The translations under genes and the position numbers were made by a program. This document shows positions 11,445 through 48,802 of a stretch of DNA of 64,000 nt, piece after piece. The stretch is from an uncultured Candidatus Saccharibacteria bacterium. Lineage in GTDB: Bacteria > Patescibacteriota > Minisyncoccia > Phycocordibacterales > UBA1006. The stretch covers positions 5,012 through 69,011 of the forward strand of contig CAZDPR010000001.1 of NCBI GenBank assembly GCA_964507625.1, written 5' to 3'. The first letter of the stretch is position 1. Every line of letters starts with the position of its first letter. The notes under the pieces are model-generated. The model had not been told where the DNA came from, searched no databases, and was given only the letters and a program-made list of their open reading frames with translations.

Positions 11445-12656
11445 ATGACCGATACAAATCCAGAAAAAATACAAGAATTTCTTTATCGTGGAGTAGAAAA
11501 AATTCTTCCTTCTCGAGACTTTGTGCAACAACAACTCGAATCTGGAAAACGATTAAAAATCTATTATGGAATTGACCCAACAGGCCCTAATCTCCATATT
11601 GGACACGCTATTGCAATTAAAAAATTAGCTCAACTACAACGTATGGGTCATGAGATTATATTCTTGATTGGAGACTTTACCGCAATGATTGGTGATCCGA
11701 CAGATAAACTCGCTGCCCGGGTAACTCTTACTCCAGAACAAATTGTAGAAAACTTGAAAAATTACAAAGAACAAGCTTCAAAACTGGTTCGATTTGACGG
11801 AGAAAATCCTGCAGAATTACGATTTAATAATGACTGGTTGGGAAAAATGGATTTTCCTGAAGTTATTAATCTTTGTTCAAAAGTAACCGTTCAACAACTT
11901 CTCGAACGTGATATGTTCCAGGTTCGTATAAAAGAAGAAAAACCAATCTACGCCCATGAAATCCTTTACCCATTAATGCAAGGGTATGACAGTGTCGCAC
12001 TGATGGTAGATGGTGAAATCGGAGGAAATGATCAATTATTTAATATGATGATGGGTCGTGAACTTTTAAAAGAACATGGGAAAGAAAAATTTGTCATGAC
12101 TGTAAAACTCCTGGCTGATGCAAACGGTAAAAAAATGGGGAAATCAGAAGGAAATATGATTACACTTGAAGACTCACCTGATGACATGTTTGGAAAAATT
12201 ATGTCATGGACTGATGGAATGATTATTGCAGGATTTGAATTATGTACCGATATTCCTGACCAAGAAATCACCACTATCGCAATCTCTATTCAAAATGGTG
12301 ATAATCCAATGCAGTACAAAAAACAACTCGCACGAGAAATTATTACTCTCTACCATAGCGCAGATCAAGCTATTAATGCACAAAATAATTGGGAACAAAC
12401 GTTTTCTGAAGGTGGAATTCCAGAAAATATTCCAGAAATCAACGGAGAATCTGAAAAATTGTTATCAGAAGTATTAGTAGAACATGATTTTATTGGATCA
12501 AAAGCAGAATTTAGACGATTAACTGATGAAGGTGGTGTAAAAATTATTACCAAGGATCTATCTGAAGAAAAAATTACGGATTTCCAATATAAACTTTCTG
12601 AAACGATTATTGTAAAGGTTGGGAAAAAGAAGTTTGTGAAAATAATTATAAACTAA
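11445..12656 (+). CDS. tyrS: tyrosyl-tRNA synthetase (class I, HIGH/KMSKS)
   Basis: YYGIDPTGPNLHIGHA...LIGDFTAMIGDPTDK...KMGKS; C-terminal S4-like RNA-binding tail. Confidence 0.7.
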   Translation: MTDTNPEKIQEFLYRGVEKILPSRDFVQQQLESGKRLKIYYGIDPTGPNLHIGHAIAIKKLAQLQRMGHEIIFLIGDFTAMIGDPTDKLAARVTLTPEQIVENLKNYKEQASKLVRFDGENPAELRFNNDWLGKMDFPEVINLCSKVTVQQLLERDMFQVRIKEEKPIYAHEILYPLMQGYDSVALMVDGEIGGNDQLFNMMMGRELLKEHGKEKFVMTVKLLADANGKKMGKSEGNMITLEDSPDDMFGKIMSWTDGMIIAGFELCTDIPDQEITTIAISIQNGDNPMQYKKQLAREIITLYHSADQAINAQNNWEQTFSEGGIPENIPEINGESEKLLSEVLVEHDFIGSKAEFRRLTDEGGVKIITKDLSEEKITDFQYKLSETIIVKVGKKKFVKIIIN

Positions 12657-12686
12657 AAAACCGCATATGCGGTTTTTTAGTTTTTT
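12651..12686. terminator. terminator (copy 1 of an identical 36-nt repeat)
   Basis: AACTAAAAAACCGCATATGCGGTTTTTTAGTTTTTTA; hairpin CCGCATATGCGG flanked by A- and T-runs; identical copy at 14824-14859. Confidence 0.7.
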
Positions 12687-13222
12687 AATTGATAATTTTT
12701 AATTAAAAAATCAATTAGTTTTTTATAGTCTGTTCCAAAAATTACTTCATTATTTGAAAATTCTTTTTTTGCAGCATAGGTGATATTTTTTAATTCATCA
12801 GATACGCCACCAGTTCCTTCAATTACCGCTACTGGTAATCCTTCCTCGATCGCGATTCCGAATTCTGATAATGTTCCAATACGACCATTTAATACAATAG
12901 CTGCATCAACATTTTTAATCATTTCAAGTGATCGAGCCGTAAAACCAGAAATAAAATGTGCTGTTGAATAAAATTTTATATCATGAGTATTTTCTTCGTG
13001 TTGTCGGTCATAATATTCATTATGATCACTATGAGGAAAATATCCAATTGTTTTTCCTGATGATGAATAAGCAGATTCAATACATACTGCAGGAATTCCA
13101 TTACATCCACCAGTCACCGTCGTAATATCTTTTTCTGCAAGATATTTCCCTATTTGCTCTGCAAGTTTTCTATTCTCTGCAGTAATTTCAGGAAGCCAAG
13201 AACTAAATATTGCTATTTTCAT
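12677..13222 (-). CDS. LOG/SLOG-family (TIGR00725-like) Rossmann-fold nucleotide-binding protein, copy A
   Basis: 181 aa; TGGCNGIP...NGRIGTLSEF motifs of the Lonely-Guy family. Confidence 0.6.
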   Translation of the reverse strand: MKIAIFSSWLPEITAENRKLAEQIGKYLAEKDITTVTGGCNGIPAVCIESAYSSSGKTIGYFPHSDHNEYYDRQHEENTHDIKFYSTAHFISGFTARSLEMIKNVDAAIVLNGRIGTLSEFGIAIEEGLPVAVIEGTGGVSDELKNITYAAKKEFSNNEVIFGTDYKKLIDFLIKNYQLKN

Positions 13223-13225
13223 AAA

Positions 13226-13933
13226 TTATTTTTTACGAGCTTTAATAATAAAATAAGTCGGGTAGTTTCCATTATGGAATTGTTCTGATGCAGGGAAATC
13301 TTTTTCCTCAAGAAATGAAAGTATTTCAAAATTATTCAAAAAATCTCGATTGAAATATTCGTTAAGTGTATGTGTTGGTTCTTTTAAAGTAATTTTTCCA
13401 TTAAAAATATGAAGTGTGCTTACTTTTGATTCAAAATAATCAACACTCTCTCCGTATTCTCGAATTTTTCCAAAATATTGTTGCATTGGATGTTTTGTAA
13501 GTAATACAAATACTCCATCTTTTTTCAATACACGTGCACACTCTGATAATGCTTTAGGAATATTAAAACATGTTTGAAGTGCCCATGTTGAAATTACAAT
13601 ATCAAACATATCATCAGAAAACGGTATGTTTTCTGCAACCCCTTCTTTGATAATTCCTGTTGGATTTAATTCTTTTGCTTTATTAATAAATTCTTCACTT
13701 GGCTCTACTCCATAAATAATTGCACCTTTTTTATTTATTTCCCTTAAAACAGTTCCATCTCCACAACCAATATCGAGTACTTTTTTGTTCATTAATTCTG
13801 GTAATTCTTTAAAGAAGTTGTGTTTACTAATATCATCATAATTAATATTATCTGAATAAATACTTGAAAAGTTATTATATTGTTTTTTTATTTTATTATT
13901 CATACCTAAATTATATCTAAAAATACTTGACAT
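13226..13933 (-). CDS. class I SAM-dependent methyltransferase, copy A
   Basis: VLDIGCGDGT (motif I)...FDIVIS...LKKDGVFVL; shares LKEPTHTLNEYFNRDFL with the paralog at 15380-16066. Confidence 0.7.
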   Translation of the reverse strand: MSSIFRYNLGMNNKIKKQYNNFSSIYSDNINYDDISKHNFFKELPELMNKKVLDIGCGDGTVLREINKKGAIIYGVEPSEEFINKAKELNPTGIIKEGVAENIPFSDDMFDIVISTWALQTCFNIPKALSECARVLKKDGVFVLLTKHPMQQYFGKIREYGESVDYFESKVSTLHIFNGKITLKEPTHTLNEYFNRDFLNNFEILSFLEEKDFPASEQFHNGNYPTYFIIKARKK

Positions 13934-14000
13934 TTCAAAATTATATTGTTTTTATGTATATTTTTAAAAAAATATTTTAAAAATTGATATACTTAATAAT

Positions 14001-14825
14001 ATGTTGTTTTCAAACCATGAAAAATTAGAAGATACTCTTGTTCGAATGCTTTTTCCTGAACGAAAAACCGCAAAAGTACTGTTACGAGAATTATTAAAGG
14101 AAAATCAAGATTATACAATCCAGTCTGTTTATAACTCGTTACGGGAACTTATTCGTTTAGAAATTGTAATAAAAACAGGGTTTTATTACCAAATTAACGA
14201 GGAATGGAAGAATAAAATTATAGAAACCGTATCTGACAGTTCTGATGATATTTTTGATGGAGAAAAGACAATATTTCTCCTTAATTCACTTACTCATTAT
14301 GATCTTCAATGGAAAAACACTATTTTACCACTCCATAATAAATATCCTAAAGATCCTATATTTTTCTATAACTACCATTATATTTGGATTCATTTAGGAG
14401 AAACTCGTGAGAAATCAGAAATTGATTATTATGAGTCATTTTTAAAACAAAAAAGATATGCTTTTTCATTAATTGGATCACATCACCCTTTAGAAGTAGA
14501 GACAAAAAAGATGGTTGAGAATGAATTTGTACGTATTTTTATTGATGATAAACCCATCCAATCATCAGGATATATTACTATTATTAATGATTATATTATT
14601 ACTTCATATTTAACTAAAAAAACACTTTCAGAAATTGATAGTTGTTATAAAAAATCAAAAACTATTCCTGAATTACGCAGGAATATTCAAAAAATTGATT
14701 TTAAATCTAATAAAGTAAAGATTATTATCGAACGCAACCGAGAAAAGGCTAAGAAGTTGCGTAAAAAAATATCAAAAGATTTTTATATTCCACGAGAATT
14801 ACGTGAAAAGTTTGATTTATTTTAA
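14001..14825 (+). CDS. winged-helix (TrmB/MarR-like) putative transcriptional regulator, paralog 1
   Basis: N-terminal IQSVYNSLRELIRLEIVIK wHTH-like segment; divergent from the MTase/LOG pair; C-terminal KVKIIIERNREKAKKLRKKI shared with paralogs. Confidence 0.45.
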   Translation: MLFSNHEKLEDTLVRMLFPERKTAKVLLRELLKENQDYTIQSVYNSLRELIRLEIVIKTGFYYQINEEWKNKIIETVSDSSDDIFDGEKTIFLLNSLTHYDLQWKNTILPLHNKYPKDPIFFYNYHYIWIHLGETREKSEIDYYESFLKQKRYAFSLIGSHHPLEVETKKMVENEFVRIFIDDKPIQSSGYITIINDYIITSYLTKKTLSEIDSCYKKSKTIPELRRNIQKIDFKSNKVKIIIERNREKAKKLRKKISKDFYIPRELREKFDLF

Positions 14826-14859
14826 CTAAAAAACCGCATATGCGGTTTTTTAGTTTTTT
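14824..14859. terminator. terminator (copy 2 of the identical 36-nt repeat)
   Basis: same sequence as 12651-12686. Confidence 0.7.
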
Positions 14860-15371
14860 ATTATCCAATTAATTACCTCTTCGTAATCGTCAGAGAAAAA
14901 TACTTGTCCAGGAAACTCTTTTTCGGCTACAGAGAGGATATATTCTAAATGATCAGCAATACCTCCTGTATTTGTAATTACACCAACCTTTTTCCCTTCT
15001 TCAAGCGCTATTGTAAATTCTGACAGCGTTCCAATACGACCATTTAATAAAAGGATTTTATCAGCATCGTGAATCATTTGTAAACTTCTTGCTGTAAATC
15101 CGGGTATAAACTTAATTTCATTAAAATATTCTGTATGAAGATTATCAAAACGATTATTATGATCTTTTGTGTGTTTATCAGGAGAATATGCGATTGTTTT
15201 TATTCCAAATTCTTTTGCTTTTTGTACTATTAATCCAGGAACTCCTAATGATCCACCTGTCATTATTTCAATATTTTTAATTTCTGAAATTTTTTTAACA
15301 ATTTGATAAATTAAATTTTCTGATTCTTCTGAAATCTTTTCTAATGCAGAAGAAATAATTACTATTTTCAT
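14850..15371 (-). CDS. LOG/SLOG-family protein, copy B
   Basis: 173 aa; MTGGSLGVPG...NGRIGTLSEF; about 40% identical by eye to copy A. Confidence 0.6.
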   Translation of the reverse strand: MKIVIISSALEKISEESENLIYQIVKKISEIKNIEIMTGGSLGVPGLIVQKAKEFGIKTIAYSPDKHTKDHNNRFDNLHTEYFNEIKFIPGFTARSLQMIHDADKILLLNGRIGTLSEFTIALEEGKKVGVITNTGGIADHLEYILSVAEKEFPGQVFFSDDYEEVINWIIKN

Positions 15372-15379
15372 TATAATTA

Positions 15380-16066
15380 TTATCTTTTTTTATAAACTCC
15401 AATAAAATATCCGGGATAAATTCGACCATCAACCTGTTCTGCTGCTGGGTCAAAAACTTCTTTAAAATCAACAAGGTCAAATTTTAAAAGAAAATCTTTA
15501 TTAAAATATTCATTAAAGGTGTGTGTTGGTTCATGAAGTGTAACCGAGTTGTTTAAAATATTACAGGTAACTATTTCTTTTTTAAAATAATCGGCTTTAT
15601 TATTTCTTTTTTCAAAATATTGACGAAACGGGTGGGTCATTAAATAAATAAAATATCCACCTGGTTTTAAAACACGATCAACTTCATTAAAAATTGGATT
15701 CATATCTGAAGATGTCATGATTGCATATTTTGAAACTACAATATCAAATGAATTATTTTTATAGGGAAGATTTTCTGCAAGTCCTACTTTAAAATTAATT
15801 CCTTTATATTTTTCTTTTGCAATTTTAATTAATTCTTCTGATGCATCAACAGCAGACACAGAGAAACCTTTTTGTTTATAATTACTTGCATCATATCCAT
15901 CACCACAAGCAAGGTCTAATAAATTATTATATTTAACCACATCAACTTCATTAATATATTTATAAAATTCACTACGATTTTGATTATTTGAATTATCACC
16001 TAAATTATGATTATTCGAGAAATCTATTGCAAAATTATTGTATTGTTTTCTTATATCAGTATTCAT
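15380..16066 (-). CDS. class I SAM-dependent methyltransferase, copy B
   Basis: LLDLACGDGYD...FDIVVS...LKPGGYFIYL...LHEPTHTFNEYFNKDFL. Confidence 0.7.
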   Translation of the reverse strand: MNTDIRKQYNNFAIDFSNNHNLGDNSNNQNRSEFYKYINEVDVVKYNNLLDLACGDGYDASNYKQKGFSVSAVDASEELIKIAKEKYKGINFKVGLAENLPYKNNSFDIVVSKYAIMTSSDMNPIFNEVDRVLKPGGYFIYLMTHPFRQYFEKRNNKADYFKKEIVTCNILNNSVTLHEPTHTFNEYFNKDFLLKFDLVDFKEVFDPAAEQVDGRIYPGYFIGVYKKR

Positions 16067-16162
16067 GCCCTAATTATATCTTTTTTATATTGACATTTCA
16101 AAATTATATTGTTTTTTGGTATTTTTTTAAACACTTTGTTTAAAAATTGATATACTCTAATT

Positions 16163-16993
16163 ATGATATATTCTAAAAATGAACATTTAGAGGATTTGGT
16201 TATTAAAATATTACTCATTAAAGAGCAGAGTGTGAAAAGTATTCATAAAACATTATCTAGTCAACAAGAAAATTTTACCCTTCAAGGTATTTATCGCGTA
16301 CTTCGAGATCTTATAAAAGATGAAATAGTTATAAAAAGAAAGAATATTTATTTAATTTCTGAGGAGTGGCGTGATCGTGTTATTAATAGTTTTAGAAGAA
16401 AACAAAACAGTATTACCCTTTCGGAACACGAAAGTATTCAATTTAACTTAGATTCTCTTGTCCATCTTGATCAACAATGGAAAAATATAATTATTCCCTT
16501 ACAAGAATCTTTTTCTGATTTTCCTGTTTTTTTATATAATACCCATGAAATTTGGATACATTTAAGTGTTAGTAGAAAAGAAAGTGAATATAACTATTAT
16601 GAATCTTTTAAAGAAAATTCTTATTCTTCGTATTGTCTTTTTGGTGGAAATACAAAGTTTGATAAACAAATAGCTATGGAATTAAAACACGAGAAATTAA
16701 ATATTAATTATGGCTATAAACCTTTTCCAGAAACAGATTATATAATAATAATTGATGATTATATAATTACAACAAGAATTTCTCGGAAAATTGCAAATAA
16801 AATAAAAGATGTTTATTTAAAAAGTAAAAATTTTGATGAACTTGAATATAATTTACAAGAACTTGGTATTGAAAAGAAAAAAGTGAAATTAATCATCGAA
16901 CGTAATCGAGAAAAGGCTAAAATTTTTAGAAAAAGAATTTCTCGTAATTTTTATATCCCAATGCAATTACGAAAACAATTTGATTTGTTTTAA
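16163..16993 (+). CDS. wHTH putative regulator, paralog 2
   Basis: LQGIYRVLRDLIKDEIVIK...ISEEWRDR...KVKLIIERNREKAKIFRKRI; collinear with 14001-14825. Confidence 0.45.
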   Translation: MIYSKNEHLEDLVIKILLIKEQSVKSIHKTLSSQQENFTLQGIYRVLRDLIKDEIVIKRKNIYLISEEWRDRVINSFRRKQNSITLSEHESIQFNLDSLVHLDQQWKNIIIPLQESFSDFPVFLYNTHEIWIHLSVSRKESEYNYYESFKENSYSSYCLFGGNTKFDKQIAMELKHEKLNINYGYKPFPETDYIIIIDDYIITTRISRKIANKIKDVYLKSKNFDELEYNLQELGIEKKKVKLIIERNREKAKIFRKRISRNFYIPMQLRKQFDLF

Positions 16994-16995
16994 TT

Positions 16996-17026
16996 AAAAA
17001 AAACCTTATAAAATAAGGTTTTTTTA
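16996..17026. terminator. terminator of the CCTTATAAAATAAGG family
   Basis: AAAAAAACCTTATAAAATAAGGTTTTTTT. Confidence 0.6.
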
Positions 17027-17290
17027 GAATATTCGCTCTATTCGCTCTAAATATCCTTTTTCTTGTAATTCATTATTAATTTCATTTAATAATTCTGGAA
17101 ACCAAGTAATAATTCTAGATTTAATAATAGGGGAAATATCAAGAAATATATGGTTTTTTTTCTGTATTTGAATACTGGATCGTGGAATAGTAATGGACTG
17201 TTTTTCTAAAAAAGAAAGCGTGGTATTACGAATTACTGTTTCCGCAGGTGGTTTTCCTAAAAAACCCTGTAATCGTTCTGAAATATCCAT
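17024..17290 (-). CDS. hypothetical 88-aa protein downstream of dnaN, possibly DUF721/DciA-like
   Basis: position after dnaN and a ...FLDISPIIKSRIITWFPELLNEINNEL... pattern reminiscent of DUF721; weak. Confidence 0.35.
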   Translation of the reverse strand: MDISERLQGFLGKPPAETVIRNTTLSFLEKQSITIPRSSIQIQKKNHIFLDISPIIKSRIITWFPELLNEINNELQEKGYLERIERIF

Positions 17291-17293
17291 ATT

Positions 17294-18400
17294 TTACCGA
17301 TTCATCGGCATTACGAGGTAGAGAAATGAAGTATCTCCTTGCCCTTTAATAACTAATGGTTTTTTAATATCTAACCATTCAAAATATAATGAATCACTAG
17401 AAATACTCGCAATTCCTTCTTGGATATATCGTGCATTTAACCCAACTTCAATAGTATTCCCTTGAACTACCGCATCAACAGAAGTGTGGATTTCACCTAC
17501 AGTAGTGTTTTCAGCTTGAAAAATAAGGTTTTTTTGATCTGGTTGTACAGAAACATGAATATGATGGTAATGATTTGAAAAAAGAGGAAGTGTTCGTAAC
17601 ACTTGAATTATATCACTTTTTAAAATAATCGCCTGAGTTGTATGCTCTGTAGGAATAATTTTTGTGTAATCAGGGAAATTTCCATGGGTTAATTGAGCAG
17701 TAATGAATATATTTTTTGTTTCAATATGCACCTGATGTTCACTGATAGTAATTATAATATCTTCTTCGGTATCAGAAAGTACTTTCAGAATATCTTGAGC
17801 ATTTTTAATAGGGAGAAGAAATGAGTTTATTAAATCAGCATTTTTAAAGGAAATTTTCTTTTCTGCAAGACGGAACGCGTCTGTTGCTACGAAATAAAGG
17901 TTTTTTTCTTTTCCATGAATATAAATACTGGAAAGTTCTGGTTTTATATCACTTTGTGATCCTGCAAACATTACTGAACGAATACCGGTAATAAAATCTG
18001 TCACAGGAAGCGAAATTTCAGCCTCCTCACCACTTTTCTTTGGTAGTTCAGGGAAATCATCAAAAGGTACTGTTTTAAGTTTTGTACGGCTTTTTTTTGA
18101 CTGCATATGGAGTACATCACCTTCTAATTCACAAAGAATTGTATCTTGATTTGAAAAACCGTTAAGTACCTGAGCAAAAGTGTTTCCAGGAATAGCACAA
18201 ATACCTGATTGTTCTACTTTTGCTGGAATAATAATTTCTGTACCTGTATGGAGATTAGTTGCACGAAAGGTAACTCTTCCATCAGAACTTGCAATACATA
18301 AAATACAGGATAATACCGGTAGGGTAGGGTGTTTACCTGTTACTTTCTCTGCCTTACTCACTGCTGATATTATTTTTTCATGAGAGCATTCAAATTTCAT
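17294..18400 (-). CDS. dnaN: DNA polymerase III beta subunit (sliding clamp)
   Basis: 368 aa; MKFECSHEKIISAVSKAEKVTGKHPTLPVLSCI... three-domain clamp; follows dnaA. Confidence 0.9.
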   Translation of the reverse strand: MKFECSHEKIISAVSKAEKVTGKHPTLPVLSCILCIASSDGRVTFRATNLHTGTEIIIPAKVEQSGICAIPGNTFAQVLNGFSNQDTILCELEGDVLHMQSKKSRTKLKTVPFDDFPELPKKSGEEAEISLPVTDFITGIRSVMFAGSQSDIKPELSSIYIHGKEKNLYFVATDAFRLAEKKISFKNADLINSFLLPIKNAQDILKVLSDTEEDIIITISEHQVHIETKNIFITAQLTHGNFPDYTKIIPTEHTTQAIILKSDIIQVLRTLPLFSNHYHHIHVSVQPDQKNLIFQAENTTVGEIHTSVDAVVQGNTIEVGLNARYIQEGIASISSDSLYFEWLDIKKPLVIKGQGDTSFLYLVMPMNR

Positions 18401-18652
18401 AATATAGTATTTTTTTAAATTTATAAATTTTTCAAATAATATTATTAGTATAGTATGTGGATACTGTGGATAAATCCAGAAACCTTTTTAAATAAAACTA
18501 TTTTAATAATTCGACCTGTGTATAATAATTATTATTATACACATATGAAATGTAGATAAATTGAAGGGAATGTAAAAAGAAATTGTATCCAAAATGTTTT
18601 CAGAAATTATCCCTCTCTATTTTCCCTGATTATAAACAAGTTTTTCCACAGA
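18401..18652. promoter_or_regulatory. oriC segment between dnaA and dnaN (DnaA boxes plus AT-rich unwinding element)
   Basis: TGTGGATAC at 18457 and perfect TGTGGATAA at 18466; flanking AT-rich run AAATTTATAAATTTTTCAAATAATATTATTAG. Confidence 0.6.
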
Positions 18653-20005
18653 TTAAGTTTGTAACATTGCACGAATTTGTTCTATATCATGAATGAGTGA
18701 AGAGTTTTCTTGAAGTTCTTTTGTAATTTTCTCATAAGAGTGCATTACTGTTGTATGATCTCGTCCACCCATTTTCTTTCCAATATGAGGAAAAGATATA
18801 TTAAAATCTTCTCGTAAAATATACATTGCTATTTGACGAGCTTCTACCACCTCTTTTCTTCTATTTTTTTCATACATTGCAGATTCTTCAATGTTATAAA
18901 AATGAGCAACAACTTTAATAATATCCTCAATAGAAATATTTTTCTTCGGTTTTATATTGTTTTTTATTAATAACTTAATTTCCTGAAGGTTTAATTCCCT
19001 TTTTCTGAGCTCCATTTGCATTATTAATGTATTAATAATCCCCTCTAATTCACGAATATTACCTTCTACATGAGAAGCAATATAATCAACTGTTTCTTCA
19101 GAAAGAGCTATTTTATATTGATTTATTTTAGATCGTAATATAGCTATACGAGATTCATATTCAGGGCGAGCTACATCAACAATCATACCTGCGGAAAACC
19201 TTGATTTTAAACGATCTTCGAGTCCTGCAATATAGTTTGGGTGTTTATCTGATGAAAAGATTAATTGTCGGTTTCTGTCATGTAAGGTGTTAAAAAGGTG
19301 GAATAATTCTTCCTGCACCCGTTCTTTTCCGCTTGAAAAGAACTGAATATCATCCATAATAATCACATCATAACTACGATATCGGTTTCTAAACTGATCA
19401 ATACGCTTATTTTGTAACGATTGAATATAATCATTTAAAAAGGTTTCAGAACTGACATAGAAAATATTTAATCCAGGGTATTTTTCTACCAAAGCATTTC
19501 CAAGAGCTTGAATAAGGTGAGTTTTTCCAATCCCCGTTGATCCGTAAATAAAAAATGGATTAAAAGTACCAAGACTTTTTAATACTGTCTGAGATGCTGA
19601 ATAAGCAACTTCATTAAATGGTCCAATAATAAATGTTTCAAATGTGTATTTTGGGTTTAAATTACTACTTTTTGGTAAAGAATGATCCAAAGGTAGTTGA
19701 GGAGCTTCTGGAGGCACAGGAGCCGTTTTTTGAGGCACAGGAGCCGTTTTTTGAGGCTTTTTAGCAATAATAAACTCAATAGATCGAATAGTATCTTTAT
19801 GGTTACGGATTGCTTTTAAAACATCTTTATAAAATTTAGTAGTAAGCCAATCCTTAACAAATTCATTAGGAACACCTACAAAGAAAACCCCCTCCTCTTC
19901 TTTTACTGCATGAGTATTTTTAAACCATGTGGTAAAATTTGCTTTTGAGACGTTCATTTCGATTTCCGCAAGAATCGTTTCCCAGAGTGTGTGTATATCG
20001 TACAT
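18653..20005 (-). CDS. dnaA: chromosomal replication initiator DnaA
   Basis: 450 aa; Walker A GSTGIGKTHL, IDDIQF, C-terminal HTTVMHSYEKI DNA-binding domain; internal PQKTAPVPQKTAPVP duplication in the linker. Confidence 0.9.
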   Translation of the reverse strand: MYDIHTLWETILAEIEMNVSKANFTTWFKNTHAVKEEEGVFFVGVPNEFVKDWLTTKFYKDVLKAIRNHKDTIRSIEFIIAKKPQKTAPVPQKTAPVPPEAPQLPLDHSLPKSSNLNPKYTFETFIIGPFNEVAYSASQTVLKSLGTFNPFFIYGSTGIGKTHLIQALGNALVEKYPGLNIFYVSSETFLNDYIQSLQNKRIDQFRNRYRSYDVIIMDDIQFFSSGKERVQEELFHLFNTLHDRNRQLIFSSDKHPNYIAGLEDRLKSRFSAGMIVDVARPEYESRIAILRSKINQYKIALSEETVDYIASHVEGNIRELEGIINTLIMQMELRKRELNLQEIKLLIKNNIKPKKNISIEDIIKVVAHFYNIEESAMYEKNRRKEVVEARQIAMYILREDFNISFPHIGKKMGGRDHTTVMHSYEKITKELQENSSLIHDIEQIRAMLQT

Positions 20006-20182
20006 AGGCTTTAAAATAAATAACGAAACGAGCTAATAAAAAGATATCCACAGTATACACTGTTTTTATATTTTATTAAAATGTCCTTAAAAGAGGAAAA
20101 AACTGTGGAAAACTTGTTGAAACAGTGGATAACTAAACAAGGACTTGTCTTTTTTGTTTTTTTGTGTAATATAAGAAATATT
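20006..20182. promoter_or_regulatory. oriC segment upstream of dnaA, plus dnaA and rpmH promoters
   Basis: DnaA-box-like ATATCCACA at 20044, TGTGGAAAA at 20104, AGTGGATAA at 20123. Confidence 0.5.
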
Positions 20183-20317
20183 ATGTCAGTGACCTATCAA
20201 CCAAAAGTCGGAAAAAGAAAGCGAAAGCATGGTTTTTTAGTACGACAAGCAACTACTGCTGGACGAAATGTTATTCGTAACCGTCGCCGTAAAGGACGAG
20301 CTAAACTAAGTGTTTAA
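20183..20317 (+). CDS. rpmH: 50S ribosomal protein L34
   Basis: [44 protein letters not shown]; classic L34. Confidence 0.85.
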
Positions 20318-20318
20318 A

Positions 20319-20351
20319 TAAAAAATCCTTATAAAATAAGGATTTTTTATT
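20319..20351 (+). terminator. terminator of the CCTTATAAAATAAGG family
   Basis: AAAAAATCCTTATAAAATAAGGATTTTTTATT. Confidence 0.6.
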
Positions 20352-20385
20352 TTAATTTTTATTATAATCATGATATACTTATTAT

Positions 20386-20709
20386 ATGATCAGTAAAAAA
20401 AACAAGATTTCTAAAGACTTTTTTCCTCAAGTAATGAAAGGAAAAAGAAAGTTAGGTAAATTTGCTGATATTATTATATCCCCTTCCCTTTCTCATAAAG
20501 TCCATGCAGGGGTAGTAATAAGTAAAAAAAATGTAAAAACGGCAGTATTAAGAAATACTTTAAAAAGAATGTTTTATAATAAAATATCTGTACAAAAAGA
20601 TAGAATTCCTCAAAAAACATATGTGTTATATGTTAAAAAACTAATAACTAAAGATATGTTAGAAGAATTTAAAAAAGATCTCTATGAATTATGTATATTT
20701 TCTTCTTAA
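20386..20709 (+). CDS. rnpA: ribonuclease P protein component
   Basis: 107 aa, basic; conserved rpmH-rnpA-yidD-yidC synteny. Confidence 0.6.
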
Positions 20710-20914
20710 AAAAATAATATTATTGAGTATTTCTTTATATCAACGTATTATTCGTCCAATATTACCTCATTCATGTCGGTTTCACCCTTCGTGTTCAGAA
20801 TATACTCGTCAGAGTATTGAAAAATATGGACCTATTAAAGGATCTTTACAAGGGGTAAAAAGAATTTTTCAATGTCATCCATGGAATCCCGGCGGATATG
20901 ATCCAGTAGAGTAA
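20684..20914 (+). CDS. yidD: membrane protein insertion efficiency factor YidD
   Basis: [19 protein letters not shown]...[16 protein letters not shown] signature. Confidence 0.8.
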
Positions 20915-20942
20915 TTATTTTATTAGTATTTATTAAATTTAT

Positions 20943-31903: not shown

Positions 31904-31930
31904 AAAAAGCCATAACGGCTTTTTATTGTG
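31904..31930 (-). terminator. internal terminator/attenuator within the T4SS-like operon
   Basis: AAAAAGCC-ataa-CGGCTTTTTATT. Confidence 0.55.
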
Positions 31931-34793
31931 AAAATGAATCTTTAAAAATATAACTCACAATTTCACTTTCTTTTGTGGTATACCACTGAGATCCATTAAT
32001 AAGTTTACATCGTAATTCTCCATTTTTCTTTGTACCCCTATCATCATTAACTTCTAATAACCATACAGAAAATGGACAAAGATAATGACGATTTAAACTT
32101 CTTTCTCCTGGGTCTTGATTAAAAATTTCCCAAATATTTCGCGCAGGTTGTACCTGGTATTTATCGCTCGAATCACGACTTTCCCGAATACCTGTATCCT
32201 GATAACAAGGTCCAGTGGTTGGGTTTGCGCATTGACCACCCTCTATCATATCTTCTGGAAAACGGGTTGGGTCAGTAGTAAGAATCGATGAACTACCATC
32301 CTGAATACCCAAACGAACTACATCAGTTCTAAACTCATTTTGTCGTCGTATTAGTATTTGTCGTAATTGTTCATGAGCATTTTTATTTGTTGGAGCACTT
32401 GGGTTTCCAATAAGCCCAACATTTTGTTCAGTAATAGTTCTAAGTAATCTACAATCATGGAGATTGTCTTGAATGTCTAAGGTTATGGATCGTAATTCAT
32501 TAATATCTAATTCTGACTGGTCAACATCTCTTTTTATTGAAACTCTTTCAGCAACTGCATTATATTCTGTTCTGATTTGATTTTTTTTCTCTAAAAATAA
32601 TTCAGATCGGGATATTGGTGCGGTTCCCAATATCTGCTCTCGTCGTTGTTGCAACTCTACAACAGAAGGTTGTCCAAAATTCCAATAATCAGATGCAGTA
32701 ATACTGGTCCCTTGAATAGTATCTATTTGAACTAATTTAAAATATGCTTCTGGTTTTTCCCAAATATTCCAAAAATGATTCATTACATAGTCAAACTCAC
32801 CTTGTTCACTAGTTGGAACATCTGTAGCAGTTGAATTTTTTACCCAATTCAGCATTTCTGTTTTATCCGCCCTTGAAAGCGCTTTCCATTCCGAAGGGGA
32901 AAAAACAATTTTTGTTCGTATTGATTCAGGAATAATTCCACTAGGAATCAATGCAAAGCTTTGACGAATATCATTTTTAAGCTTTCTTAAAACATTTAAT
33001 GCAGTTTGTTTTTTAATTAGATCGGATCGTTTTTTTCCGTATACTTTTTGCACATCAATTAATTTATTGGTTTGAGATTGAAAAGTAAATGCTCCTGGAA
33101 TATTTCGCTCTGGGTCTGACATCCATACTTCTACTTCTGCCTTAGCGAGAGGTACTGCGGTTTCAATAATATCTTTTGCTTGCTCTCTATTTTCTTGTTT
33201 ATTATCAGTTCCTCCCCCTGATGCAAGTTTTGCTTCTAAATTTCTTGTTTGTACTTGAACATATTTATCAATTTTATCTACAAAATCAAAGTCAGGACCA
33301 GGAACACATGCGCTGAGTTGCGAAACGAGCTTTGGAAATGATTTGTTTTCATTTACTCCATTTTCTTCTACAGACACCAGTGGTTTACCTCCGATAATAG
33401 ATATGTATTCTTGAATTAGTCGTAATTCTTGCTCTGTATATTCAAGCGCAAGACTAAAATCAGATCGTAAATCCACAACGTTTATAGGGGCTTGTGTCCA
33501 ATTTATAATTCCACCTGAAACTGATTGGAGTTGTTCTGGTCCTCCAATGGCGGGGGGTGATTGTCGATAATCAGCACGAAGTGATGCAAGTCCCGACTGA
33601 AGAAAGCTGTTTGCCATACTTACAAAAATACCCGCAACCACCTCTCCAATTTCATCAACGTTTTTAATTTTATCCATCGCGAGATCAGTAGCTCCTTGCA
33701 GACCACTCGATACTAACCCTAAAGGATTTTGGATTGTTTCTACTAAACATCGTCCAAAATCTTCAACTAAAACTTGTGTATTTGTTGCGAGCGTGTTTCT
33801 TAATCCCTGTACCTGACCCTGAATTTCTTTTATTTCCTCTAGTTCTTTATTATACCGGGCAATATCATTTCCCCAGTTTTTATATTCATCTTGTAACATT
33901 GACATTTCTATTTGTAGTTGTTGTGCTCTCGTTTCATTTCCCGCATTTTTTGCTTCTTGTATTTTAGGTGGAAATGCAGTAATTTTGGGAGATAAAAGCA
34001 TTTGTTCCTGTATTGCTTCTTGTATAAGTGTATTTAATCGATTGATTTCTTGTTGCGCCATTTTTAATGCGGTAGTATCTTCACCTGTTTCAATCTGTTG
34101 TTGATTTACACCCTGAAACTCATCTCTATTTTTCTTTATTGTTTTAATTTGTTGTGCATAGTCAGAAAAATTAAGTGAACACGCCTGTTGCTGAGGGAGT
34201 ATTCCTGGGCTCGTTAATTTAATCATTTCGTTTTCCCGAGCACGCTCAATAGTTACCCCTAATTGTCGTTGTGCGATCAAGCTTGAACCAATTCCAGTAT
34301 TTCCAGGAATAGACATGGCGAGCAATCCATCGTAACCACCAACACTTGCGTCTTCGTAAAATTCCTGCCAGCGACTACCAACAACTCTATCAAGATTAAA
34401 ACCACCAATAGTGTCAGGTATACCAGGTCCTCCAGCTGTTGAATAAGCAAAAATCATACTACGTGCAATATTTTGAGCGAAAGGGTTTTGTGAAACCTCT
34501 AAGTCAGTAACAAATTTTTGAATTTTTGTTCGTTCGAGATCTGCAAAATAACTATTAAAATCATTTACAAAACTTGGCTGACTATCGTCACCACTGGCCC
34601 CACCATTTGCCTTATTAAAAATTTTATTAGCAAGTTTCGTTCCCGCAGTAGACGCAAGTACATATGCAAGCGTGTCGAGTCCATATTCTTTTATTTGGTT
34701 TGCAACATCAACAAATTGAGCTTGGGATATTTGAGGAACCATGATTACAAAAAGTAATAAAAGGGTAATATTTTTTTTTGTTTTCTTAAACAT
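31923..34793 (-). CDS. large secreted hypothetical protein (956 aa, signal peptide)
   Basis: MFKKTKKNITLLLLFVIMVPQISQAQ signal; no recognisable catalytic motif; candidate surface, pilus or adhesin component. Confidence 0.5.
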   Translation of the reverse strand: MFKKTKKNITLLLLFVIMVPQISQAQFVDVANQIKEYGLDTLAYVLASTAGTKLANKIFNKANGGASGDDSQPSFVNDFNSYFADLERTKIQKFVTDLEVSQNPFAQNIARSMIFAYSTAGGPGIPDTIGGFNLDRVVGSRWQEFYEDASVGGYDGLLAMSIPGNTGIGSSLIAQRQLGVTIERARENEMIKLTSPGILPQQQACSLNFSDYAQQIKTIKKNRDEFQGVNQQQIETGEDTTALKMAQQEINRLNTLIQEAIQEQMLLSPKITAFPPKIQEAKNAGNETRAQQLQIEMSMLQDEYKNWGNDIARYNKELEEIKEIQGQVQGLRNTLATNTQVLVEDFGRCLVETIQNPLGLVSSGLQGATDLAMDKIKNVDEIGEVVAGIFVSMANSFLQSGLASLRADYRQSPPAIGGPEQLQSVSGGIINWTQAPINVVDLRSDFSLALEYTEQELRLIQEYISIIGGKPLVSVEENGVNENKSFPKLVSQLSACVPGPDFDFVDKIDKYVQVQTRNLEAKLASGGGTDNKQENREQAKDIIETAVPLAKAEVEVWMSDPERNIPGAFTFQSQTNKLIDVQKVYGKKRSDLIKKQTALNVLRKLKNDIRQSFALIPSGIIPESIRTKIVFSPSEWKALSRADKTEMLNWVKNSTATDVPTSEQGEFDYVMNHFWNIWEKPEAYFKLVQIDTIQGTSITASDYWNFGQPSVVELQQRREQILGTAPISRSELFLEKKNQIRTEYNAVAERVSIKRDVDQSELDINELRSITLDIQDNLHDCRLLRTITEQNVGLIGNPSAPTNKNAHEQLRQILIRRQNEFRTDVVRLGIQDGSSSILTTDPTRFPEDMIEGGQCANPTTGPCYQDTGIRESRDSSDKYQVQPARNIWEIFNQDPGERSLNRHYLCPFSVWLLEVNDDRGTKKNGELRCKLINGSQWYTTKESEIVSYIFKDSFSQ

Positions 34794-34798
34794 ATTGT

Positions 34799-35752
34799 TT
34801 ATAAGTTAAATAAAATAGTAAATTCAGAAATTTTTTTTTCAACAACATTTATATTTTTTTGAAGCACTAGAAATAAAATCATATTCATCATATCTTGGTC
34901 TTCTGCCGGAAGGTTATTTTTTTGTAAAAAAGTGTCATGAATTTTTGCTAGCGCATTCATAAGTGCTAAGTGTTGATCGATATAATCAAAAGGTACCGGG
35001 ATAGTATATATTTCTCGAGTAAGATTTTGGAATAATATTCTATCTGCTGAAGTGTCAGTATTATTGAAAAAGTTTGGATACCGATTATAAATATCTTGAA
35101 TATTTATTCTTTCGATTATTTTTTTTATTTTTTCCTCATAATCAGATAGTTCTTTGTTTATATTTACCCCTTCTTCATCAAAAATAACTACAACATCTTG
35201 TTCTGCATAAGTTGTCATTTGTCTATCAATAGTGTCTGCAAGATCGAGAATTTCTTTTGCAGTTGCTGCTTGAAGATTTTCTTGGTAATTCCTTCCTATA
35301 GGATTTGTTCGTGCTCTCTCATAAATTGCAAGCGCTAATTGATCACTCGTAGTTAAAATACCTATAGTGTCATTAATAATTGACCGCATTTCAATAGGAA
35401 CTTCTTCGATTGTGGTAAATACCTCAGAATCAGTTCCAATTAATGCTTCTTGCCAATCAGGAATTCCATCCCCATCTGTATCTTTATTAATAACAAAGGA
35501 AACATTTCTCTTGTTGGTATCTATAACTGGTGCAGGAATATCATTCGGTGGAAAAACCTTGGTTTCTATTTTTTTAAATAGTCCAATGATTTGAGACCGC
35601 AACATAATAATGATTACTACGACGAGTATTCCAAATACAGTGAATACTAATTTTTTACTCGGTAAATAACTACTCAATGATCCTGAATATTGTTTTGGTG
35701 GTTCCATGTAATTCTGATCATTTTTTTGTTCATAAAAAAATTTATTTCGCAT
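34799..35752 (-). CDS. membrane-anchored hypothetical protein with a DxDxDG calcium-binding-like motif
   Basis: TM LVFTVFGILVVVIIIML; DTDGDGIPDWQEA (thrombospondin-type-3-like); start set to MRNKFF. Confidence 0.4.
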   Translation of the reverse strand: MRNKFFYEQKNDQNYMEPPKQYSGSLSSYLPSKKLVFTVFGILVVVIIIMLRSQIIGLFKKIETKVFPPNDIPAPVIDTNKRNVSFVINKDTDGDGIPDWQEALIGTDSEVFTTIEEVPIEMRSIINDTIGILTTSDQLALAIYERARTNPIGRNYQENLQAATAKEILDLADTIDRQMTTYAEQDVVVIFDEEGVNINKELSDYEEKIKKIIERINIQDIYNRYPNFFNNTDTSADRILFQNLTREIYTIPVPFDYIDQHLALMNALAKIHDTFLQKNNLPAEDQDMMNMILFLVLQKNINVVEKKISEFTILFNL

Positions 35753-35818
35753 ATCATATAATAGTGTACCAAAAAAGAAAAAAAATAGATATAAAAAACA
35801 CACCACACGGTATGTTTT

Positions 35819-47069: not shown

Positions 47070-47876
47070 TTATATATTTTTATTAAAAAGTTCCTGAACA
47101 CGTCTTTTATATGTTATATCTGCATTAAAATAATCATCTGAAAAGTTGGGATTTGTAATATAAATATCTGTTTCAAATACTCCTTTTTCAAATTCCATAA
47201 AAGTAAACATTTTATCAGCAAGTTCTTTAGGTGTAATCCAAAATTCAGGATTTACTTTTGTTGAAAAAATAAAGGGTCGTTCGATCATTTCATCAACCGT
47301 AAAGATTGTGCTTGTGTTAAATAGATATATACTAACATTTTGAAAAGTTCCCTGGATTTTCTTTGAAAAGTTTTTTACCACATCTCGTGATTTTTTAAAT
47401 GATTGAAAAACTGGAATATTGTGCATATCAGCAAGTGAACCAAAAGAGACAACTCTTAGTTCTTTGTTTAAACTATTTGTTTTTTCAGCTAGAATCTCAA
47501 CCATTTCTATATAAGATTTTGCAACAAGATTATAAACCTCGTCATCAATTCCGTCATTGTCAAAATCATTTGCAACATTAATTTCTAGATTACTATTAAT
47601 TTCAGTTTTAAATTCACCAACAAGATGAAAATACTCAACAGAATTTACATTCGTAAAAGATATTTTTTTTAGAAAGTCTTTAATGCTATTTGAGTCAGCA
47701 AGGTCAACTTTAACAATTAAGTGGTGCTCAGGCAGTTTTTCAATACTTGAAATATCTACTCCTCTACGAGAAATACCATAAACTATAGTATTTTTTTGAC
47801 TAATATATTTTCGAGCAACTTCTTGCCCAATTGATCCGGTAATTCCAGACACGATAATAATTTTTTTATTTTCCAT
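47070..47876 (-). CDS. NAD(P)-binding Rossmann-fold protein (SDR/epimerase-like)
   Basis: N-terminal IIIVSGITGSIGQEVARK glycine-rich dinucleotide-binding motif. Confidence 0.5.
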   Translation of the reverse strand: MENKKIIIVSGITGSIGQEVARKYISQKNTIVYGISRRGVDISSIEKLPEHHLIVKVDLADSNSIKDFLKKISFTNVNSVEYFHLVGEFKTEINSNLEINVANDFDNDGIDDEVYNLVAKSYIEMVEILAEKTNSLNKELRVVSFGSLADMHNIPVFQSFKKSRDVVKNFSKKIQGTFQNVSIYLFNTSTIFTVDEMIERPFIFSTKVNPEFWITPKELADKMFTFMEFEKGVFETDIYITNPNFSDDYFNADITYKRRVQELFNKNI

Positions 47877-47986: not shown

Positions 47987-48802
47987 ATGAACCTCACAAA
48001 ACCAGAAACTACCGAGGAACGAATCATTTCCCTCCTCCTTAAAAATTCGCTTTCTGGGGTTGAGTTATTAGAAATACTTGATGTTTCTGGTAAAAAAATT
48101 ACAAAACAAGCGTTATATAGTGTTTTAAGAAAATTAATCCAAGATGAAATAGTCGTAAAACATGCAAAAATGTTTTCAATTTCTCGATTATGGCTCAAAA
48201 ATATGGCGAATATGTTTACCTCGGCTCAGGATCGTTACGGGATTGAACTTGAAAAAAACGACTTTCTTTCATTGCATGAAGGTGACAAGATTTCATATAC
48301 CTTTAAAAATCCATACGAAGCAGACCAGTTTTGGGGTCATGCATTTGATATTCTAATTGATAAAACACCATTAGAAATTCCTATTGTATTATACAATCCC
48401 CATCAGTGGTTTTTACTAGTTCGTAAGGACAGTGAATATCAGTTATTAGAACGAATTAGTAAAGAGGGAAAAAAGTTACATAACCATGTTGGGAGTTCGA
48501 ATGCGTTAGATAGATATGTAGAAAAGTATTTTAATTTACCGGGATTGCAATATGTAATGAATGAACAAGGGTATTTTGAAGCAAGGAATTATTATATCAA
48601 TATATTTAATAACTATATTATTGAAGTATATATTGATGAAAAAGTTGCCGAAGAAATTGATCGTTTTTATGAGCAATATACAGATTTTGATAAAATCGCT
48701 GAAAAGAAATTACAATCTATTGTATCCCAGGGTAAAACAAAACTTATTATTTCTCTGAATACCAAAAAAGCAGATAGATTAAGAGGGTTGATTGAAGCTT
48801 AA
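47987..48802 (+). CDS. wHTH putative regulator, paralog 3 (same family as 14001 and 16163)
   Basis: KQALYSVLRKLIQDEIVVK...ISRLW...NPHQWFLL...KTKLIISLNTKKADRLRGL; collinear motifs with paralogs 1 and 2; divergent from the SDR-like gene. Confidence 0.45.
   Translation: MNLTKPETTEERIISLLLKNSLSGVELLEILDVSGKKITKQALYSVLRKLIQDEIVVKHAKMFSISRLWLKNMANMFTSAQDRYGIELEKNDFLSLHEGDKISYTFKNPYEADQFWGHAFDILIDKTPLEIPIVLYNPHQWFLLVRKDSEYQLLERISKEGKKLHNHVGSSNALDRYVEKYFNLPGLQYVMNEQGYFEARNYYINIFNNYIIEVYIDEKVAEEIDRFYEQYTDFDKIAEKKLQSIVSQGKTKLIISLNTKKADRLRGLIEA

Follow-up and report, generated by a model that had tools for sequence, protein, structure and literature searches.

In the fas/mtr locus of Rhodococcus fascians, a LOG enzyme and two S-adenosylmethionine (SAM)-dependent methyltransferases (MTases) make methylated cytokinins. 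The LOG-like enzyme PtnC, which carries a conserved Arg95/Glu118 pair, frees the antimetabolite base 8-azaguanine from its nucleotide (PMC7109123), while in the bacimethrin route CMP is converted to hydroxymethyl-CMP by an enzyme similar to thymidylate synthase (TS), the free base is released by an N-glycosidase and is then O-methylated by an MTase (PMC12345177). Here, we analysed a stretch of 64,000 nt, referred to as the window, from an uncultured Candidatus Saccharibacteria bacterium (assembly GCA_964507625.1, contig CAZDPR010000001.1, positions 5,012 to 69,011), in which two consecutive gene cassettes at 12651-16993 each combine an SLOG-superfamily protein, a SAM MTase and a divergently encoded regulator. 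We propose, at a confidence slightly below even, that these are regulated operons which would make methylated nucleobases from nucleotides, each under its own divergent regulator. The architecture of the cassettes is well supported. Observed here were the genes that each cassette holds, how widely the module is conserved, its folds, the retention of catalytic residues and the conservation and placement of an operator-like palindrome.

As an earlier note made from the DNA alone had described, the locus consists of two tandem units of identical layout with six intact open reading frames (ORFs), the SLOG and MTase genes lying on the minus strand and the regulator on the plus strand. Cassette A comprises SLOG-A (12677-13222, minus strand, 181 aa), MTase-A (13226-13903, minus strand, 225 aa counted from Met11) and regulator-A (14001-14825, plus strand, 274 aa), and cassette B their paralogs SLOG-B (14850-15371, minus strand, 173 aa), MTase-B (15380-16066, minus strand, 228 aa) and regulator-B (16163-16993, plus strand, 276 aa). 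MTase and SLOG genes are separated by 3-8 nt, and the cassettes repeat with a period of about 2170 nt, visible in a repeat finder as co-linear direct repeats spaced 2146-2173 nt apart. From BLASTP, paralog identities of 47% for the SLOG pair (E 3e-48), 41% for the MTases (3e-53) and 41% for the regulators (9e-63) were obtained, close to the 40% previously estimated by eye, and the two peptides quoted at that time, LKEPTHTLNEYFNRDFL and LHEPTHTFNEYFNKDFL, are present.

The assignment of the first protein to the SLOG superfamily could be confirmed by profile searches, in which PF18306 (SLOG cluster 4, LDcluster4) reached 79.5 bits for SLOG-A (E 2.7e-22) and 58.2 bits for SLOG-B (E 9.8e-16) at a cutoff of 26.3. 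Homologs carry the same PF18306 annotation in precomputed form, and many are labelled TIGR00725 by the Joint Genome Institute (JGI). The nearest solved relative is 1rcu, a Thermotoga maritima protein of unknown function, followed by bacterial LOG enzymes. Upon alignment to the LOG structure 5zbj, its catalytic ARK stands opposite ARS and its GTLEE opposite GTLSE, so that the Arg and the Glu are kept, with Arg97 (in TARS) and Glu120 (in GRIGTLSE) of SLOG-A and Arg95 and Glu118 of SLOG-B as putative catalytic residues. Within 23 family members G38, G39, G42, G113, G116, T117 and E120 are invariant, constituting the glycine-rich nucleotide-binding loop GGxxG and the motif GxGTxxE. SLOG-A is furthermore the most conserved member of its cassette, with 66-82% identity compared to 47-62% for the MTase and 46-61% for the regulator in the same loci, in keeping with a nucleotide-cleaving step that stays constant while tailoring and control diversify.

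The second protein was correctly recognised as a SAM MTase and belongs to class I, with Methyltransf_11 matches of 81 bits (E 1e-22) for MTase-A and 79.6 bits (E 2.8e-22) for MTase-B at a cutoff of 21.2. The SAM-binding motif LDxGCGDG is invariant in the family alignment, as are Y9, H138-P139, Q142, Y156, E175-P-[TS]-H178-T and Y183, numbered from Met11. The structure model (predicted local distance difference test score, pLDDT, of 94) displays a Rossmann MTase fold with a Foldseek E value of 3e-18 to 3g5l, and its neighbours of small-molecule or natural-product type include 3g5l, 3l8d, YcgJ, AtmM/RebM, TleD, ToxA, MitM and MccD, of which ToxA, a heterocycle N-MTase, is among the nearest. The C-terminal substrate region is common to only about 61 homolog clusters, other homologs matching the generic Rossmann core alone; the subfamily is restricted to the candidate phyla radiation (CPR) and apparently undescribed. 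It should be noted that the MTase-A ORF as listed reaches 13933 and thus begins 10 codons too early. Since the paralog and all homologs begin at MNxxIKKQYNNF and a TATAAT box lies 6 nt upstream, the true start is probably Met11, with its ATG at 13903.

To place the cassettes in a wider context, a tblastn census was carried out over 58 loci gathered by genome and metagenome scans and by contig look-ups, all of CPR/Patescibacteria character. The pairing of MTase and LOG-like protein noted previously was found in all related loci with enough flanking sequence, from both sides of the module: every A- or B-clade regulator locus with enough upstream sequence displays a divergent MTase followed by SLOG, and starting from SLOG homologs of 47-67% identity, the MTase lies 2-5 nt upstream in all four further loci. 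The carriers are all Patescibacteria metagenome-assembled genomes, with different flanking genes in every one. Seven cassettes contain two MTases (L011b, L014, L015, L016, L030, L038 and L042). In a third cassette type, C, a diverged SLOG is paired with a ThyA homologue and the gene order is variable, namely MTase-ThyA-SLOG in L003 and L017 and MTase-SLOG-ThyA in L018 and L021. The type C cassette L036 (882-4180) is extended to MTase, ThyA-like, serine hydroxymethyltransferase (SHMT, 459 bits at a cutoff of 335) and SLOG. No dihydrofolate reductase is present in it, which would fit a hydroxymethylase cycle. The conserved MTase-SLOG-regulator module is apparently undescribed, as the literature searched gave nothing on it; its components belong to known superfamilies, and an SLOG cluster 4 enzyme in the putative glycosidase role is apparently undescribed as well.

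The ThyA-like proteins of these sister cassettes (L003, L017, L018, L021 and L036) bear on the chemistry. Their catalytic Cys161 and Glu are kept, and an invariant Asp192 occupies the position of Asn177 of the Escherichia coli enzyme in 4/4 sequences, with Ser at the position of Ser167 and Lys at that of Arg126. An Asp at the Asn177 position marks enzymes acting on cytosine nucleotides, such as T4 dCMP hydroxymethylase, MilA and BcmA, while Asn marks uracil enzymes; the Ser is a deoxy-type and the Lys a MilA-type residue (PMC5175136). Judged by these residues, the ThyA-like enzyme would be a cytosine-specific C5 one-carbon transferase, be it a methylase or a hydroxymethylase. The pathway around nucleotides or modified nucleotides which the earlier note had suggested is supported by this cytosine-specific enzyme and, in one cassette, by SHMT, the product being a point of inference. 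A deaminase adjoining the cassette in L031 was considered as a further link to cytosine and rejected, as it is TadA-like.

The divergent control regions of cassette A (13904-14000) and cassette B (16067-16162) share the same layout. Positions 13927-13993 and 16090-16156 are 88% identical over 67 nt, and both strings that had been quoted as a conserved promoter block lie inside. When the divergent regions of 22 cassettes were aligned, a conserved block TTGACATTTCAAAA..TATATTGT, start-proximal -10 boxes and a palindrome emerged. In region A, the minus-strand promoter consists of TTGAAA (13938-13933), a 17-nt spacer and TATAAT (13915-13910), and the plus-strand promoter features an extended -10 element TGATATACT at 13985-13993; in region B, TTGAAA (16101-16096) and TATAAT (16078-16073, 6 nt from the MTase-B ATG) are found on the minus strand and the same extended -10 element at 16148-16156 on the plus strand. 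Since the -10 boxes lie 6-7 nt from the ATGs, both divergent transcripts are probably leaderless.

The palindrome is a candidate operator. In cassette A it reads TTTAAAA-AAATA-TTTTAAA (13963-13981; 1 match where 0.05 are expected), centred 29 nt 5' of the regulator-A ATG, where it overlaps the -35 region of that gene, and in cassette B TAAAC-ACTTT-GTTTA (16128-16142), centred 28 nt 5' of the regulator-B ATG, so that a central A/T base pair in cassette A corresponds to C/G in cassette B. In the 465 kb of fetched loci, 19 exact TAAAC-N5-GTTTA sites were counted, 19/19 of them directly 5' of a regulator-family gene, and the general form TAAAN-N5-N'TTTA precedes 34 of 45 such genes with centres mostly at -28 to -30 or -38 to -40, a position that covers the -35 element and spacer of the regulator's own promoter. 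The view of the regulator as dedicated to its cassette is strengthened by this family-wide putative operator. The difference in the central base pair may insulate the two paralogous circuits from each other. Elsewhere in the window, an additional exact TAAAC-N5-GTTTA (TAAACATATTGTTTA) at 34787-34801, where two minus-strand genes (31923-34793 and 34799-35806) meet, could be either a further site or coincidental, and one at 20302-20316 was rejected as an operator since it falls in the last codons of rpmH and is probably due to chance.

The winged helix-turn-helix (HTH) assignment of the third gene product was upheld by structure prediction and found no counterpart at the sequence level, as regulators A and B match nothing in Pfam, NCBIfam, PADLOC or, by sequence, the PDB. 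The model (pLDDT 86) comprises a winged HTH (approximately residues 9-65), a linker helix and an alpha/beta domain resembling phospholipase D (PLD) without the HKD motif; an active PLD nuclease role of this domain was discarded, because no lysine of an HxK motif follows the invariant His126. Searched as a profile against the PDB, the regulator alignment returned only spurious eL30 matches (E 0.2), hhalign found no relation to a PF01978-positive CPR protein (probability 0.5%), and Pfam on 41 diverse family members yielded 4 weak FUR or PadR matches, with neither PF01978 nor PF11495. Membership in the TrmB family does not hold by sequence, and it is the modelled architecture alone that is common to both.

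A first homolog search with the regulator gave 54 clusters; at 50% identity, the family amounts to 1775 clusters at E<=1e-3 and 1036 at 1e-10, all of about 265-285 aa. This winged HTH-PLD family has no Pfam or NCBIfam model and is apparently undescribed, and a predictable operator for such a large unmodelled family provides a starting point for studying how transcription is regulated in CPR genomes. The window itself holds a third, distant paralog (47987-48802, plus strand, 271 aa, 25-29% identical to A and B), divergent from a 268-aa gene (47070-47876, minus strand) similar to short-chain dehydrogenases/reductases (SDRs), a pairing seen in 7/8 related loci (L002, L023, L025-L028, L032); upstream of it, a different palindrome, AGTAAA-N7-TTTACT, is found. 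Further members in L045 (2109-5275) and L044 (52-3243) both feature a TAAAC-N5-GTTTA site. One of these two adjoins a short-type PurA (370 bits; PurZ model 265 bits, below cutoff) and an RdgB/HAM1 inosine triphosphate pyrophosphatase (ITPase), the other substrate-binding and permease genes of an ATP-binding cassette (ABC) transporter. Such varied divergent partners are commonly seen where a family consists of local transcription factors.

We propose a model in which each cassette would act as a two-gene enzyme operon, MTase then SLOG, divergent from its own transcription factor, and for which we infer DNA binding, the sign of regulation, the substrates and the product. The regulator, with its HKD-less PLD-like domain as putative ligand sensor, would most likely bind TAAAN-N5-N'TTTA over its own promoter; a sugar is unlikely as its ligand. 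Since the site overlaps the regulator's own -35 element and spacer and lies about 70 nt upstream of the start of the enzyme operon, the regulator would be expected to autoregulate and to control the operon, and the A/T or C/G central base pair may let each paralog address its own cassette. SLOG would cleave the N-glycosidic bond of a nucleotide in the manner of LOG-type nucleoside-5'-monophosphate phosphoribohydrolases, and the MTase, as its modelled fold suggests, could methylate the base before or after this cleavage. The output would be a methylated free nucleobase and (deoxy)ribose-5-phosphate, the base serving as an antimetabolite or signal. We arrive at a methylated base since the LOG dyad is kept, PtnC provides a precedent and the type C cassettes correspond to the three bacimethrin steps.

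Several observations weigh against this model. Where the LOG motif has PGG, the SLOG proteins of types A and B read NGR, type C showing a near-canonical PLGGDGTELEE, and the scores for SLOG-A and SLOG-B stay below cutoff for TIGR00725 (57.1 and 53.9 bits, cutoff 106.9) and PF03641 (LOG; 18.1 and 17.4 bits, cutoff 27), as they do for TIGR00730 (34.4 and 19.3 bits, cutoff 96.35); in the literature searched, no assigned function or biochemistry was found for SLOG cluster 4 or TIGR00725. Most fold neighbours of the MTase are uncharacterised structural-genomics proteins, and the tRNA MTase Trm9 is also among them. The regulator displays no kinship to characterised DNA-binding proteins detectable from sequence by PDB profile, hhalign or Pfam. 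Neither the two window cassettes nor the rest of the 64 kb contain a ThyA-like gene, so that the bacimethrin analogy rests on the sister cassettes, and there the ThyA-like enzyme could also be a dCMP methylase for DNA metabolism, since a TS-like C-terminus and Ser182 are kept. No exporter, kinase or immunity gene was found linked to the cassette.

Among the alternatives, sanitation or salvage of the nucleotide pool fares best, and we nonetheless regard it as unlikely. SLOG would here hydrolyse modified or methylated (deoxy)nucleoside monophosphates against their re-incorporation, with the MTase tagging or processing the substrate and the regulator as sensor of the nucleotide. CPR bacteria scavenge nucleic acids, and DNPH1, which hydrolyses modified nucleotides, is a model for such sanitation. 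The retention of LOG-type catalytic residues, the high conservation of SLOG-A as for a housekeeping enzyme, the proximity of regulator-family members to PurA and RdgB and the setting of the module among housekeeping genes all agree with it, but a SAM MTase, let alone two, is not needed for sanitation, and the ThyA-like enzyme of the sister cassettes would create a C5-modified cytosine nucleotide, with SHMT in one of them to feed it. The presence of these two enzymes therefore speaks for synthesis rather than removal.

That the MTase acts on tRNA, rRNA or DNA, with SLOG as a DprA-like nucleic-acid-binding partner, appears improbable. Residues 13-83 of SLOG-A do reach the DprA Pfam threshold, although marginally (29.7 bits, cutoff 29.6) and far outscored by PF18306, and the conserved catalytic Arg and Glu would be superfluous in a pure binder. 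Trm9 and RlmA-type models are among the weak MTase matches, but neither alignment nor model contains an RNA- or DNA-binding domain in the MTase, and a locally regulated, duplicated and diversifying cassette with variable MTase number and ThyA or SHMT would be atypical for RNA-modification genes.

Still less probable is a conflict or defence system in which SLOG senses or processes a signalling nucleotide, comparable to Thoeris ThsA, at which the earlier note had hinted in view of the recurrence of SLOG domains in such systems. PADLOC matched PsyrA, ShosA and ThsA weakly in their SLOG parts (E 6e-5 to 9e-4); these matches stay at the domain level, are joined by one to the generic MTase part of mad2 and are missing for the regulator, so that PADLOC was negative for a system. 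The cassette GC content of 27-29%, slightly under that of the flanks, and a relative (L030) adjoining a serine recombinase could point in the same direction, but no effector domain (SIR2, TIR, nuclease or transmembrane) is present, the flanks are housekeeping genes and not a defence island, a scan of viral contigs with the regulator alignment found nothing, and many CPR species keep the module as a core-like unit. Cytokinin production, finally, was rejected because no cassette contains an isopentenyltransferase.

The tandem arrangement of A and B in the same order was also found in L002 and L011 and thus in three genomes in all. As the A and B types are kept there in tandem as orthologues, the duplication must be old with both copies maintained, and a recent duplication was rejected. 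The intrinsic terminator hairpins are at variance with this age. Copy 1 (12651-12687), acting in both directions, lies between the convergent tyrS and SLOG-A genes and overlaps both stop codons, and copy 2 (14824-14860) lies between the convergent regulator-A and SLOG-B genes, so that they are shared with tyrS and regulator-A and bracket cassette A exactly. The identity of the repeat had been described correctly, its length is 37 nt and not 36; the copies agree in 37/37 nt and are the only two in the window (0.00 expected). It was likewise said to end each cassette, which is true downstream of both SLOG genes, but at the regulator end of cassette B a hairpin of another sequence is found, which is A/T-rich (AAAAAACCTTAT-AAA-ATAAGGTTTTTT) and lies at approximately 16997-17026, 3' of regulator-B and convergent with an 88-aa ORF and dnaN. 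L011 contains a similar hairpin only after SLOG-A. For the 37-nt hairpins to be identical despite the old duplication, gene conversion or re-insertion is therefore needed, which suggests that one of these took place locally in the present genome.

The cassettes are flanked by tyrS (11445-12656, plus strand) on the 5' side and by the 88-aa ORF, dnaN and dnaA (17024-20005, minus strand) on the 3' side. Between 12001 and 18000 the GC content is 27-29%, compared to about 33-35% in the flanking housekeeping genes, and L030 abuts a serine recombinase; the lower GC content, this recombinase and the flanks differing in every genome hint at mobility within CPR lineages. Positions 18653-20940 are of origin type, with dnaN, dnaA, a divergent rpmH (about 20184-20318), an rnpA-like and a yidD-like ORF, and DnaA-box-like sequences ATATCCACA, TGTGGAAAA and AGTGGATAA are found at about 20044-20135. 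From the dnaA/rpmH neighbourhood and these sequences, the cassettes therefore lie about 3-7 kb from the likely oriC.

The ultra-small CPR bacteria are thought to be minimal in metabolism and poor in specialised metabolites. If true, a duplicated and regulated module for nucleobase tailoring would be a rare CPR example and could bear on host interaction, and the strict MTase partner together with the ThyA-like and SHMT variants provides a concrete biochemical hypothesis for SLOG cluster 4 and TIGR00725. In a wider and more doubtful extension, which we consider possible and rather unlikely to hold as a whole, CPR genomes would harbour a diversifying family of small biosynthetic cassettes (types A, B and C, each holding one MTase or two, with or without ThyA-like enzyme and SHMT), in which SLOG releases methylated purine or pyrimidine bases as bacimethrin-like antimetabolites or signals for hosts or competitors, each with its own winged HTH-PLD regulator from a family of more than 1000 clusters, in which operator specificity would depend on the palindrome's central base pair.

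In comparison with known systems, the regulator shares with TrmB and TrmBL2 a modelled architecture of a winged helix and a non-catalytic PLD-like domain, but differs in the lack of TrmB sequence similarity by Pfam, hhalign and PDB profile, in the confinement of its family to CPR-like genomes and in a conserved basic C-terminal tail (ERNKEKAKKLRKK..FYIPKELREKFDLF). With the LOG family, that is plant and bacterial LOG, PpnN and PtnC, the SLOG proteins have in common the Rossmannoid SLOG fold, the catalytic Arg and the Glu of GxGTxxE, while they remain below the PF03641 and TIGR00730 cutoffs, carry NGR for PGG and match PF18306 best. The fas/mtr locus of R. fascians resembles the cassettes in co-locating a LOG-type enzyme with SAM MTases in a small-molecule pathway and differs in its isopentenyltransferase, P450 and cytokinin oxidase, none of which accompany the cassettes. 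PtnC provides a precedent for a LOG-like enzyme which, in the final step of a biosynthesis, frees an antimetabolite base (PMC7109123). From the bacimethrin (BcmA/B/C) and mildiomycin (MilA/B) pathways, the present system is set apart by the CPR bacterium as host, by window cassettes that lack the ThyA-like gene and by the lack of ThiD2, transporter or thiaminase genes with the cassettes; BcmC and the cassette MTase are alike at the level of the general class I fold, and no N-glycosidase domain of BcmB/MilB type was found in the cassettes, where the SLOG cluster 4 protein would take that role. The likeness to these pathways is found in the type C cassettes, which co-locate a ThyA homologue carrying the diagnostic Asp with predicted N-glycosidic cleavage and predicted SAM-dependent methylation.

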